Source of the DNA: an uncultured delta proteobacterium
GTDB taxonomy: Bacteria > Desulfobacterota > Binatia > UBA9968
DNA length: 64,000 nt
NCBI GenBank assembly: GCA_963804165.1
Contig: CAWDPO010000041.1
Span: forward strand, 64,001 to 128,000
Direction of reading: 5' to 3'
Shown here: positions 28,605-34,447 of the stretch, in pieces
Layout of the letters: each line of letters starts with the position of its first letter
Numbering within the stretch: the first letter of the stretch is position 1
Made by a program: the position numbers and the translations under genes
Notes under the pieces: model-generated
Databases searched by the model: none
Seen by the model: only the letters and a program-made list of their open reading frames with translations
Told to the model about the DNA's origin: nothing

Positions 28605-29579
28605 CTAAGGAGCTTTGCCAATTCCCAAGTCGCGTTGGGCTTCCTTTAGAATCGAAAGGTCGATCACCGTTTCCGGCATGATGTCGGCCGAAAGTTTGAG
28701 CTCTTCCCTGGTGGCCGCGAGGAGGTTCTTTAAGCCGTTGTCCGTGGGTATGCCGTTGCGGCCGAAGATCTTCACTCCCAGGTCATAGGCCTCAGTGGCG
28801 CTGGCAGCGGGCATTTTGAACGATTGGGTCAATAGCGCTTTGGCTCCCTCGCGATCGTCATTGACGAAGCGCAGCGCGTGGAGTAGGGCGCGCAAGACGC
28901 GTCGCGCTTCATCGCGCTTATCCTTGATCCTTTTTTCCGTCGTACCCAATCCTCCCATAGGCATGTCTACGATATCTCCGGCGTAGACCAATACGTTGAG
29001 TCCCTGCTCTTTAGATCGCACGGCAAAATCAGGAGGCAGGAGCGTTGCATGGATGGCCCGGCCGACCAATGCGGAAAAACGTATGGAGTCCGGTCCAAGC
29101 GCGCGGATAGCGACATCCTTTGGAACGCTCAGGCCGTAGAATTCCAGCACCTGTCTGGTGATGTAATGGGCAGCTCCGCCAAAAGATGAAACGGCAACCG
29201 TGCGCCCATGAAGCTCTTTGGCTTGCTTGATCTCCGGCAAAGTCACGAGATAATAGATCGGCTTGGCCACGTAATTGAAAAGGCTCTTGACGCCGCCGCC
29301 CCGTACGGCGGTGGCGATGATCCGCGAATTATGCGTGATGTAATCTACGTCGCCGGAAAGCAGCGCTGCGACGGCAGGCGACCCGGCGATCTGAACGAGC
29401 TCCACGTTAAGTCCTTCGGCGCGAAAGAAGCCCCGTTTGCTAGCTGCGAACAATGGCAGTTCTTGAAAAGCGACGGATGGAAAGCCAATCCGAATGGCCC
29501 GCTCTTGGGCCGCGCCGTTGCCTGCAAGCAAAATGACGACGAGCAGAAACAGAGGGAATGTAATTGTTGCAGCTTTCAT
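28605..29579 (-). CDS. ABC transporter substrate-binding protein (NitT/TauT/SsuA-like)
   Basis: Signal peptide; A..RGFFRAEGLNVEL, ALLSGDVD, LHGRTVAVSSFG. Confidence 0.85.
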   Translation of the reverse strand: MKAATITFPLFLLVVILLAGNGAAQERAIRIGFPSVAFQELPLFAASKRGFFRAEGLNVELVQIAGSPAVAALLSGDVDYITHNSRIIATAVRGGGVKSLFNYVAKPIYYLVTLPEIKQAKELHGRTVAVSSFGGAAHYITRQVLEFYGLSVPKDVAIRALGPDSIRFSALVGRAIHATLLPPDFAVRSKEQGLNVLVYAGDIVDMPMGGLGTTEKRIKDKRDEARRVLRALLHALRFVNDDREGAKALLTQSFKMPAASATEAYDLGVKIFGRNGIPTDNGLKNLLAATREELKLSADIMPETVIDLSILKEAQRDLGIGKAP

Positions 29580-29755
29580 GAAAAGTTGTTCAACCTCTGC
29601 GCGCCGAGCGATTGCTGCGAGGCCTAATCCAGAAATATGGAGCGTCAAGAGAAGACCTAGTCTGCTCTCGTTTGTATCCAAGATCTCAATCGATCGCTGA
29701 GAAGAAGCGAACTTCACAATCGCTATTTCCCGCAATAGACAACCCGCTTCCCGGA

Positions 29756-31344: not shown

Positions 31345-31441
31345 TGTCATTCTGAGGAGTATAGCGACGAAGAATCTGCTTTGGGTCTTCATGGTTTGAT
31401 CAGATTCTATAATTTCCAAACCAGATGCTTCACTTCGTTCA
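31345..31441. repeat. REP-like dyad whose right arm is interrupted by the IS (continues at 32758-32766)
   Basis: Left arm TGTCATTCTGAG...AAGAATCTG; right arm CAGATGCTTCACTTCGTTCA|GCATGACA once the IS is removed. Confidence 0.8.
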
Positions 31442-31459
31442 TCTATGAAAGCTTTGTCA

Positions 31460-31646
31460 AGGTGGCTGATATTCACATATCGATATTCCGTCAAAGGTTT
31501 TGAACAAACTTACTCATATCGTCCGTAGTCCTGCGCACCCGATGTTATCGGACTCATCTATTCGCCGTCTTAAGCGGCAGAGGAAAATGCCACAGGGCTG
31601 TCGCAATCAGCATTCGAGCCTTGTTTGGCTCATGAGCGAAACGCGC
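31460..31646 (-). ncRNA. Putative bridge/seek RNA in the IS right non-coding end (boundaries approximate)
   Basis: Two parallel hairpin+GA+guide modules with segments identical to the target (ATGCTGA) and donor-junction (ATAGATGA) sequences. Confidence 0.65.
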
Positions 31647-32687
31647 TTAGCCCCGCGTGGACGACATCGGTTCCCGATAGGACTCTCCCTTCTTAAGCAT
31701 CCAGAAAGCCGCCTCGGCCAAGTGTCGGGCGACCGCCACAATCGCTTTGCCATGACCGCGCCTGGCTTTGACGTTTTCATACAGCCGGCTGATATGTCGG
31801 TACTGGCAGCGCTCGCGGTTGAGCACCGCGCTGTTGGCCGCCTCGACGAAGGCCCACTTGAGATACAGGTTCACATCTTTGCGCACCCGCCCGTAGCGGA
31901 TCTTGCCGCCACTGGAGTTCTCTCGCGGTACCAGTCCCGCATAGCTCGCCAACTGTTCGGCTCGGCCAAAGCGTTCGATGGTGCCGATCTCAGTCCAAAT
32001 CACCACCGCCAGCATTTCACCGACCCCCGGCTCACTCTTCAAGTAGGTCGTCTGGGGGCAGGGAGCAAACGCTGCTTGCATCTTTGCTTCGATGACCTTG
32101 AGATTGGCTTGTACATGATCGAGTTCGTCAAGCATCAACTTCAGCGCTTCGCCGGTATGAGGGGGCAGTTTAGCCAGCAGTCCTTCGAGGATCTGTCGTC
32201 CCTGCTTGCCAAAGGCGTCGCTGATTCCGTCCACCTTAAAGCCGTACTTACTTATAGTGGCGTGAATCCGATTCTTGAGTTGGGTGCGTTGATTGCTCAA
32301 CACCATGCGGGTGCGCGGCAACTCCCGAGCGTCGCGCACCGCGGACGGGGGAATCCAGACCGTCGGCAGGGTTCCTGCCCTCTGCAAACGGTTCATTCCT
32401 TTGGCATCCAACTTATCGCTCTTGTTGACGCTGCCGATCATCAGCTTGGCCAAGCGTGCATTGACCAGTTGCGGACTCCCTTTTCCAGCTTCGATCTCAT
32501 CGACTACCCAGTACCAGTTCCCAACCGTCTCCACCGCCACGGGAGTTCCGGGATTCCACTTCTTGGTAAAGTTCTCGATGGTTCCACCAACGTGCGCGAG
32601 TTTGCACTCATAGAGCTTATCGCCCTTGTCGTTTTCCACTCGCGCCCAGCTGTAGTGCTTGTGAACATCCAATGCAATGTATTCCAT
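31647..32687 (-). CDS. IS110 family transposase (DEDD RuvC-like recombinase)
   Basis: IALDVHK, VAVE, KSDKLDA, PGVG, SYAGLVP..NSSGGK, A.VAVARHL; AAGGAGG SD. Confidence 0.95.
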   Translation of the reverse strand: MEYIALDVHKHYSWARVENDKGDKLYECKLAHVGGTIENFTKKWNPGTPVAVETVGNWYWVVDEIEAGKGSPQLVNARLAKLMIGSVNKSDKLDAKGMNRLQRAGTLPTVWIPPSAVRDARELPRTRMVLSNQRTQLKNRIHATISKYGFKVDGISDAFGKQGRQILEGLLAKLPPHTGEALKLMLDELDHVQANLKVIEAKMQAAFAPCPQTTYLKSEPGVGEMLAVVIWTEIGTIERFGRAEQLASYAGLVPRENSSGGKIRYGRVRKDVNLYLKWAFVEAANSAVLNRERCQYRHISRLYENVKARRGHGKAIVAVARHLAEAAFWMLKKGESYREPMSSTRG

Positions 32688-32836
32688 TTGCGATTTCCTC
32701 CTTCACCCGCCAGTCTAGTCACTGACGCTGTGGATTCCATCGCTTTCATATTAATCAGCATGACAACCCGCGAACAGCCAACTCCGCCAGAAGAACCATT
32801 CCGACTTCTCTCGCTTCGTGTCCTTAGTGCATTCTT

Positions 32837-34256
32837 CTAGGGTTTAACGAGTGCGGGCCGTCGCGTGTGCCAATCTGTTGCGCTTTGATAGGCTGCCGCC
32901 ATATTTAAAACGGTTTGGTCGCCGAACCAGGCGCCGATCAACTGCATACCGATCGGCATGTTTTCCGGACTGATACCGCAGGGAAGCGAGCAGCCGGGCA
33001 AACCGAGCATGCTCGGAAAGCGCAACAGATTGGAATGATTGTAACTCGCGTGGCGTGTATCGTCGCCATTGCCTTTTACGCCGTCGACGAGGAGCGGCGC
33101 GACTCTGCCGGTGGTCGGCGAGGCGATGATGTCGACTTTCTCATACGCTGCGCGCACGCGCCTCACGAATCTTGTGGCGCGCGCGCTGGGCGGTTAAATA
33201 TTCGGACGCGGTGATCGTCATGCCCACGGCAATGCCTCGGGCGACGTGGGGCACATAATCTTGATGGCGCTCGCGAAACCAACGGCGGTTGATGCCGGCG
33301 CTCTCGGCGGAGCTGGTCAACATGGAAGTCATCGCGGCGTACTTTAGCTCGGGAACGTCGACATCGACGATTTCGCAACCTGCGTCACCGAAAATTTGGA
33401 GCGCTGCCTCGAAAGCTTGCTTCACGGCAGGGTTCACGCCTTCCAAAAATGGCCGAAGAACACCGACTTTCAAGCCTGTGATATTAGCGTCAAGCCGAGC
33501 TGAGTAAGCCGGTTTTTCTTGATGTACACTCGCCGGATCGCGCGGGTCGTGGCCGGCGATGGGGTCCAAACCCAATGTGATGTCTTGCACCGACCGCGCA
33601 AACAGCCCCACATGATCTTGACTCCAGGCACCGCGGAACGAGCCGTGACGGCTGATGATGCCGAACGTGGGTTTAAAACCGACGATGCCGCAATAGGACG
33701 CCGGCCTGCGCACCGACGATCCGGTCTCGGTGCCATAGGAGAGCGGACCGATGCCGGCGGCAACGGCGGCCGCGGAGCCACCGCTCGACCCGCCGGCGAT
33801 GCGATCCACATTCCACGGATTGTGGACCGGGCCGAAGTGAGAAAGCGTCGACGTGCCGCCGTGGCCGAACTCGTCGAGATTCGTTTTGCCGATGATGATT
33901 GCACCGGCTGCGTGCAAGCGTTCAACTAAATGTGAATCTGTCGTAGACACCCAGTCCGCCAGAATCTTCGATCCGCCTGTGGTCAGCACGCCGGCGGTCT
34001 CAAACATATCTTTGATCGTCACGGGCACGCCGTGCAGCGGGCCGCGATAGTTTCCGCGGGCGATTTCCTGATCTGCTTTGCTTGCTTCGGCGGGCGCTTG
34101 TTCGCGTAGAACCGTGATGAAAGCGTTGAGCTTGCCTTCAAGCTGATTCAGATGCATCAGTGCCGTTTTCACGGCCTCGGCAGACGACAGCTCGCGCGCC
34201 GCGATGAGTTGTGAAAGTTCGGTCAAATTCAATTCAAGAATATTACCGGGAGTCAT
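32837..34256 (-). CDS. Amidase signature family enzyme (GatA/AtzE-like), frameshift near 33160
   Basis: GPLHGVPVTIKD, GKTNLDEF, GGSSGGS, GTETGSSVRRP; C-terminal PIGMQLIG in a second frame. Confidence 0.87.
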
Positions 34257-34258
34257 AG

Positions 34259-34447
34259 TCAAACCTTTTTGCTTGCGGGTTGCGCTTGCTGCGAAATCCA
34301 CGGCGTGCCTTGAGCGAACTCTTCCAGCTCGGCTACGACTCTTTCAAGATCGGCAATTTCGGCGGTGATGAATTCGAGATCGGTAGCCGAAAACTCAACT
34401 TCCTCGAGCAGCGCCAGTCTGTGCGCAATCTTGTCCTTGTCTGTCAT
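34259..34447 (-). CDS. Small acidic protein, possibly a GatC/AtzG-like amidase partner
   Basis: GAGGAG SD; 62 aa; helical acidic pattern; ends 2 nt before the amidase ATG. Confidence 0.6.
   Translation of the reverse strand: MTDKDKIAHRLALLEEVEFSATDLEFITAEIADLERVVAELEEFAQGTPWISQQAQPASKKV

Follow-up and report, generated by a model that had tools for sequence, protein, structure and literature searches.

Behind the stop codon of a transposase gene, on the minus strand of the 64,000-nucleotide stretch of an uncultured delta proteobacterial genome analysed here (the window), lies a region that very probably encodes the bridge RNA, or seekRNA, of an IS1111-group insertion sequence of the IS110 family. 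Judged from its sequence, the element has every feature by which the IS1111 group is recognized, and the RNA has the structure and covariation expected of a bridge RNA/seekRNA, the right-donor guide excepted. The original prediction had described a reprogrammable recombinase with a 3-nt shared core. A guide system of an IS110-family recombinase stands, with guides that covary with their targets, and "reprogrammable" holds in the limited sense of natural variation of guides with targets; the core comes down to TG only.

The insertion sequence and its palindromic target

The transposase gene (31647..32687, minus strand; stop codon TAA at 31647-31649) encodes a recombinase of 346 aa that was assigned to the IS110 family (DEDD RuvC-like and Tnp domains) with Pfam, NCBIfam and an alignment to IS621. 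The protein matches PF01548 (E 2.1e-10) and PF02371 (E 3.4e-21), and scores 232.5 bits with the NCBIfam model NF033542, "IS110 family RNA-guided transposase", for which the cut-off is 140. Similarity to the IS621 protein is detectable in the Tnp domain only, where the IS621 structure 8wt6 aligns with the C-terminal Tnp domain (E 2e-11) and S259-G260 falls on the catalytic Ser-Gly. These residues belong to a serine motif, G251-L252-x-P254-xxxx-S259-G260, of the IS1111 form GL-P----S(t)G. NKSD91KLD94 aligns on NKTDTVD of IS621, in a weak stretch (i-E 120), and D7 and E53 of the DEDD set were assigned by inspection only. A scan guided by the protein, with each species represented by one genome, recovered 80 related loci with 39-85% amino-acid identity, all in metagenome-assembled genomes and spread over several phyla. 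Among the scanned genomes, the clade of the window element came from uncultured soil and sediment sources only.

The limits of the insertion sequence were set by the identity among its 10 copies in the same genome (7.5 Mb in 46 contigs, 81% complete), which starts after TG with ATTAATATGAAAGC and stops with GCTTTCATAGATG. In the window the whole element, including both TG cores, occupies 31440..32757 of the minus strand, with the left core at 32756-32757 and the right core at 31440-31441; this ~1.3-kb element measures 1316 bp if counted from the start of the left end up to and including the right core. Its left flank, GTTGTCATGCTG, passes into ATTAATATG, and its right end, CTTTCATAGATG, passes into AACGAAGTG. 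Sub-terminal inverted repeats of 9 bp, within the range of 7-17 bp given for the IS1111 group, lie at 32742..32750 on the left (TATGAAAGC) and at 31444..31452 on the right (GCTTTCATA), both minus strand. The non-coding DNA is 207 nt long downstream of the transposase gene versus 68 nt upstream. Sub-terminal inverted repeats and a longer downstream non-coding region are the features described as setting the IS1111 group apart from IS110 proper (PMC11187229; PMC11208160). An automatic longest-inverted-repeat search for terminal repeats was dropped because neighbouring REP palindromes confound it, and the replacement boundaries were anchored on motifs and on guides, some of them being set by hand from the printed sequence. 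Directly upstream of the element, an amidase-like gene (32837-34301, minus strand) is read in two overlapping frames, 33141-34301 and 32837-33166, an arrangement that points to a frameshift, or else a misassembly, near 33150.

The ten copies fall into two families. Family A (n=4) comprises the window copy, L001, and the near-identical L002, L003 and L004 (98.7-99.6% identity to the window copy); family B (n=6) comprises L005-L010, which are 80-82% identical to family A. Since the near-identical copies lie at different sites, recent activity is suggested. The window copy looks intact, and three others look impaired from their sequences: L003 carries an insertion in a guide, L004 has indels close to the gene end, and L010 has several hairpin changes. 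A rearranged B-type fragment on contig C22 (~28900-29750; L011-L013) is made up of a 707-nt 5' part, 92 nt of internal sequence and a 31-nt piece, opposite strand.

The element sits in a REP-like repeat, because uninterrupted REP sites carry a single TG(A); nothing is duplicated beyond the shared core. All copies (10/10) are inserted at one REP position, after GTCATKC-TG, and their flanks are the halves of a palindromic repeat, GTCATNCTGAGC...GCGAAGNATCT. In the window the left half, GTCATGC, is found at 32758-32764 and the right half, AACGAAGTGAAGCATCTG, at 31422..31439 (minus strand; flanks and, for the right half, a REP census). That census, of GTCATNCTGA on both strands of the genome, returned 251 occurrences, where our arithmetic gives an expectation of ~14 per 10-mer. 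The REP family consists of three variants with compensating arms, N being C in 101 occurrences, T in 92 and G in 49, with A in the remaining 9; a matching right arm lies at most 30 nt away in 61/101, 63/92, 17/49 and 0/9 of these, respectively. The insertion point falls within a putative tandem G-A mismatch of the REP stem. The repeats frequently stand in convergent pairs of differing variants.

Occupancy differs among the variants. The C variant, GTCATCCTGA, described as equally abundant with its 101 copies, is unoccupied in this genome, and no third sister family for it was found there; the guides of relatives (L017 and one metatranscriptome relative) match it. T-variant repeats that continue with GG are occupied in 0/35 cases in the same genome, as expected if AGC is needed by the right guide. 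On contig C17 (~163792-163832; L014), a REP of the window-target subtype without an insertion reads GTCATGCTGA-TGA-ACGAAGTGAAGCATCTG, and so carries an additional TGA relative to the related repeats GTCATTCTGAACGAAGTGAAG (three copies). This extra TGA resembles either a 3-nt footprint left by imprecise excision or the product of a small duplication.

Guide segments and the sites they match

The segments and hairpins quoted in the original prediction, namely TTCGCTCA, GAGCC(aaacaa)GGCTC, ATGCTGA, GCCG(cttaaga)CGGC and ATAGATGA, were all found on the minus strand where it had placed them. Flank covariation identifies TTCGCTCA (RNA UUCGCUCA; 31633..31640, minus strand) as the right target guide (RTG), complementary to the top strand over the core and the right target, and AUGC plus core UG plus A (31607..31613, minus strand) as the left target guide (LTG), equal to the top strand of the left target and core. 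Of the two, the top-strand complement is the 5' guide and the bottom-strand complement the 3' guide. Reading of the flanks upheld the identity of ATGCTGA with the left target and junction, and TTCGCTCA, when reverse-complemented to TGAGCGAA, agrees with the right target TGAACGAA in 7/8 positions, the single mismatch having been anticipated. REP variants that would match this guide perfectly had also been proposed, and here the genome disagrees: in its 81%-complete assembly no REP site reads TGAGCGAA after GTCATGC, the nearest being TGAGCGAC.

Comparison of the two families shows how the guides follow their sites within one genome. The LTG is ATGCTGA in 4/4 copies of family A, all with the left flank GTCATGCTGA, and ATTCTGA in 6/6 copies of family B, all with the left flank GTCATTCTGA. 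The right flanks of family A read TGAACGAA, TGAGCAAT, TGAGCAAA and TGAGCAAT, so that the RTG mismatches its own site at one position in the window copy and at two to three distal positions in the other three copies. In family B the RTG is GCGGCTCA, with the reverse complement TGAGCCGC; the right flanks are TGAGCCGC twice, TGAGCCGA, TGAGCCCA and TGAGCGTT, matching it at 8, 8, 7, 6 and 5 of 8 positions (the flank of L009 is lost at a contig end). The guides of the two families differ by one base in the LTG and three in the RTG, and the hairpin P2 between them by two compensatory pairs (GAGCC/GGCTC in family A, GGGTC/GACCC in family B). The donor module and the element ends are identical between the families.

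For the test across relatives, the sub-terminal repeat motif, and not the guides, defined the element boundaries. The five variable bases of the LTG agree with the left flank at a mean of 4.31/5 (26 unique guide/flank pairs from 41 loci), compared with 1.39 for non-cognate pairs (n=648). The contiguous run of RTG complementarity from the core averages 5.8 (37 unique pairs from 40 loci), and a narrower scoring gives 5.5 for cognate versus 2.4 for non-cognate pairs. Covariation of guides with targets across homologs, which the original prediction had named as a check, is therefore present for the LTG and the RTG, the observed value being reached in 0/20000 permutations for each, with the relatedness of loci uncorrected. 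The few low cognate RTG scores arise because the match begins just past the core (L080, L046) or is interrupted (L027, L032). Shared ancestry alone is unlikely to be the cause of the target-guide match, since the distinct guides are many (25 and 30). The matches of the window copy are short by themselves; that target matches exceed chance is settled by the covariation within and across genomes. Nineteen Acidobacteriota loci (L048-L054, L056, L057, L059, L060, L064, L067-L070, L072, L074 and L078) have common guides (LTG ..CGGGGTGA; RTG complement ..ACGTGTC) and common flanks (GGGGTG on the left, ACGTGTC on the right), which points to one conserved target across species.

The proposed 3-nt shared core was not borne out. 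Of 37 unique insertion sites, 20 have A directly behind the terminal dinucleotide on the right flank, 10 have G, five T and two C (a count from which L029 was left out, its right flank duplicating that of L024). At the left end, TG is invariably followed by A, and every LTG finishes with (T/C)GA. Because A follows the right-flank TG in only 20/37 sites and the left end always has A, the core shared by guides and sites reads as the dinucleotide TG, with CG in L029 and L042. The right guide complement of L015, L016 and L024 reads TG+GATGCCG or G+GACCGAGT. The third identical base in the window is coincidental, the REP target having by chance the same A with which the left end begins. In L042 the left flank ends in ...GCCGTG and the right end in ...TAGACG, and the guides carry CG; this insertion, with TG at its left junction and CG at its right, could serve as a marker of which strand's core base is inherited.

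The left donor guide (LDG), ATAGATGA, consists of AUAGA, core UG and A (31554..31561, minus strand). Its predicted identity with the insertion sequence end plus core and junction was confirmed on the window copy. Across relatives, the LDG agrees with the seven terminal bases of the right end (counting the core) at 7/7 positions in 45 of 51 unique cases, at 6/7 in four and at 3/7 in two, the last being L023, with a degenerate end, and L003, with a 1-nt insertion in the guide. It follows the right-end variants TAGA, GATA, GAGA, TACA, TATA and GAGG, as well as the change of core from TG to CG in L029.

These donor data bear on a reading in which the RNA is a target seeker only, the protein reads the donor ends through the sub-terminal inverted repeats, and ATAGATGA belongs to a conserved scaffold or repeats the end internally, with no guiding role. 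In its favour, the donor ends show little variation, which leaves few independent changes of the LDG (12 unique combinations, with non-cognate pairs already agreeing at 5.2/7); the right donor guide is degenerate in the window element; and the emphasis in Siddiquee et al. is on target matching by a short seekRNA, 82-96 nt long (PMC11187229). We nevertheless consider this reading improbable, as the LDG tracks every right-end variant seen and IS1111 elements have both loops according to Durrant et al. (PMC11208160). An RNA that guides both target and donor recognition is preferred.

The original prediction had found no contiguous right-donor guide and suspected an atypical donor loop, and our analysis agrees. 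By position, a weak candidate is CAUUUUCCUCU / CATTTTCCTCT (31579..31589, minus strand), for which a hand alignment of CATTTTCCTCT with TGATTAATATG gives 7/11 possible pairs and a scan in 10-nt windows 7/10. The latter value is at chance level, being reached by 280/300 shuffled regions, and no right donor guide above chance was found in the window. Two further placements with 7/10 pairs each, 31463-31472 and 31510-31519, were rejected, as they differ between families A and B despite identical donor ends. In 53/74 covariance-model matches the four bases before hairpin P3 read UCA-U, the complement of TG+A, and in the window clade they read CUC-U (8/74 matches, plus the copies in the same genome). 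At UCA-type loci whose left end is known (31 unique cases among 40 loci), complementarity to the left end over the five positions that follow averages 2.26/5, versus 1.48 when permuted, and 0/20000 permutations reach the observed value. Clade structure contributes to this signal, since off-diagonal column-by-position signals are equally strong. The right-donor guide thus appears degenerate in the window clade and at best weak.

The base that follows each core also varies in a regular way. The base after the core in the LDG (LDG+1) equals the first right-target base in 35 of 51 cases, which 0/20000 permutations reach. In 16 cases LDG+1 is a base other than A; 12 of these agree with the right-target base and 0 with the donor's own next base, and the loci at which LDG+1 equals a target G or T are L024, L028, L030, L033, L041, L043, L046, L055, L062, L070, L085 and L088. 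The corresponding LTG+1 is always A, as is the base that opens the left end. The +1 bases of both guides fit the integrated junctions rather than the core, and they may act as junction readers, the integrated junctions being the excision substrates in the sense of PMC13626964. We put forward, as a tentative and rather doubtful proposal, that in the window clade three guides pair fully, the RDG has no core complement and the right donor half is held mainly by the protein through the sub-terminal repeat, with LTG+1 and LDG+1 reading the junctions. If true, LTG+1 and LDG+1 would be the bottom-strand counterpart of the IS621 handshake guides, possibly tuning the balance of excision and insertion.

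Fold of the RNA and its conservation

The bridge RNA/seekRNA was delimited with the covariance model R1 at 31536..31665 on the minus strand (C41:95536-95665 in contig coordinates; 120.1 bits, E 6.9e-27); the window copy belonged to the seed of R1, and these limits are those set by the model. The RNAalifold consensus of 37 downstream regions (alignment A1) has 20 pairs, 15 of them with double changes. Standard pairs fill 94.1% of cells versus 73.4% in shuffles, double-change cells number 148 versus 40.6, and in a control in which partners were slid by 1-3 columns, pairing falls to 28-44%. The 5' strand of stem P1, CGCGGGGCU (31649..31657, minus strand), overlaps the last transposase codons and the stop, and its 3' strand, AGCCCUGUG (31591..31599, minus strand), makes two G-U pairs in the window copy; all 8 pairs of P1, identified by RNAalifold and pair counts, show double changes. 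An invariant CGCG (31642..31645, minus strand) pairs with UGCG (31602-31605) as C-G, G-C, C-G and G-U, closing the target loop, and all four pairs, the G-U included, are kept in 37/37 sequences.

Three hairpins complete the fold. P2, GAGCC(aaacaa)GGCUC (31616..31631, minus strand), lies between the target guides and is identified by its compensatory changes and covariation, and P3, GCCG(cuuaaga)CGGC (31564..31578, minus strand), belongs to the donor loop and emerges from RNAalifold and pair counts. P4, CCGAU(aac)AUCGG (31539..31551, minus strand), was read from the sequence 3' of the donor guide; it is conserved as CCGxx..xxCGG in alignment A1 and absent from the RNAalifold consensus. The hairpin-guide layout that had been described for both modules is conserved in relatives. 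In the Acidobacteriota the scaffold reads TGAATGCG, replacing TGATTGCG.

With R1, the RNA was found directly behind the gene in 73/80 loci (74 matches, two of them in L065), 35 of which were in the seed of the model and 38 outside it. Five of the seven unmatched loci are cut by a contig end or have a partial gene (L021, L061, L073, L079 and L090); L031 and L076 have downstream sequence present and no R1 match. A search of the element's own genome matched exactly the ten insertion sequence copies, and thus no orphan RNA copies were found there. Rfam, searched at E up to 10, returned three unrelated sub-threshold matches, none of them within 31440-31665.

Conservation of the fold also bears on two further explanations. 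The guide matches could have arisen by chance in a 3' untranslated region of mixed AT/GC content, or could be left over from earlier insertions, each match being only 7-8 nt long and the single-sequence fold of the non-coding region being unremarkable (z 0.30 versus shuffles). We regard this as the least credible of the explanations, in view of position-specific covariation over 26-51 unique loci, which was not equalled in any permutation, and of a conserved structure with compensatory changes. The guide segments could also act as single-stranded DNA, as in the target choice of IS200/IS605, given that the matches are equally present in the DNA and that the RNA itself is deduced here from sequence. 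This is very unlikely: the protein belongs to the DEDD/Ser recombinases of the IS110 family and not to the Y1 HUH enzymes, relatives have been shown to use RNA (PMC11187229; PMC11208160), and P1 contains several G-U pairs. The G-U pair that is invariant in 37/37 sequences likewise favours RNA over DNA.

In the fold established by comparison, stem P1, overlapping the gene end, and then the invariant 4-bp helix enclose an internal target loop, in which the two target guides flank hairpin P2, and a second module consists of hairpin P3 and the left donor guide. As proposed from the literature on IS621 and IS1111, the DEDD/Ser recombinase, bound to both loops, would exchange strands at TG, and this exchange would place the element in GTCATGC-TG-AGC.. 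REP palindromes.

Expression and relation to known systems

A scan for sigma-70-like promoters and intrinsic terminators found neither on either strand of the linear element, and a promoter of its own for the RNA is accordingly unsupported. TTGACA (31455..31460) and TAATAT in the left end (32748..32753), both read from the minus-strand sequence, are the -35 and -10 halves of a putative junction promoter: with the ends joined through one core, they form TTGACA-17 nt-TAATAT, as worked out by hand. Because the linear copy is without a promoter and the joined ends give this arrangement, the excised circle is probably the main source of the transposase and the RNA. TTGACA-17-TAATAT agrees with the hybrid junction promoters known in IS621, ISEc11 and ISPpu10 (PMC12288879). 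Contigs from three metatranscriptome runs in two studies cover the RNA region of relatives that are 85-95% similar (31439-31865, 31537-31715 and 31523-31681 in window coordinates); DNA carry-over is possible, and these contigs are uninformative on transcription and on the ends, strand and level of the RNA. One of these relatives has the left guide ATCCTGA, which equals the third repeat variant. None of the public sequencing runs holds at least half of the element's words, and no circle junction or empty site joint was seen in sequencing runs.

The RNA class to which this region is assigned was already published for IS1111 elements in 2024, and the known mechanism is unchanged by our results. 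Bridge RNAs have been predicted in 93% of catalogued IS1111 elements (PMC11208160). Like the seekRNAs of ISEc11, ISPa11, ISKpn4 and ISPst6 (Siddiquee et al. 2024, PMC11187229), the window RNA lies in a long downstream non-coding region. As described there, IS1111 elements also share with the window element the sub-terminal inverted repeats, a transposase of 330-350 aa with the GL-P----SG motif, and an RNA with two segments that address both target strands, overlap at the crossover and have the top-strand complement 5'. The differences are that the window transposase is ~33% identical to the best plasmid-borne IS110 transposases, and that the window RNA is known from sequence alone. Similar folds, or relatives of the window clade, may already be contained in the supplementary figures and tables of PMC11187229 and PMC11208160.

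The IS621 bridge RNA, as described in PMC11208160, PMC11208158 and PMC13626964, has the same two-loop logic (LTG/RTG and LDG/RDG), with a dinucleotide core in each pairing. Its discontiguous right-donor pairing, reported by Durrant et al. (PMC11208160), may be comparable to the weak candidate pairing in the window, and the promoter across the circle junction, predicted in our case, and the same catalytic residues are further points of similarity. In contrast to IS621, where the RNA lies upstream of the gene, the window RNA lies downstream, and the order of the guides within the loops is reversed. The core is TG rather than CT, the window element has a 9-bp sub-terminal repeat, and the RNA core is ~130 nt long, compared with 177 nt in IS621.

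Insertion into REP sequences is known for several IS110-family members (PMC12288879), and the site-specific REP insertion seen here resembles that of ISPa11 and of ISPpu9 and ISPpu10 of Pseudomonas putida (Pares-Guillen et al. 2025, PMC12288879). The crossover at a shared dinucleotide (AG in ISPpu9) and the hybrid junction promoter of ISPpu10 are further likenesses described in that study. Free copies of ssr9 are reported for P. putida, whereas no orphan RNA modules occur here. The window genome differs, too, in harbouring two sister families tuned to two variants of one repeat.

Two sister elements in a single genome, directed to two variants of one palindromic repeat, provide a natural example of retargeting. 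The recombinase is compact (346 aa), its RNA core is ~130 nt, and its clade is far from the enzymes studied so far. With a sharply conserved scaffold and well-defined guide positions, this clade is useful for comparative work on bridge recombinases.
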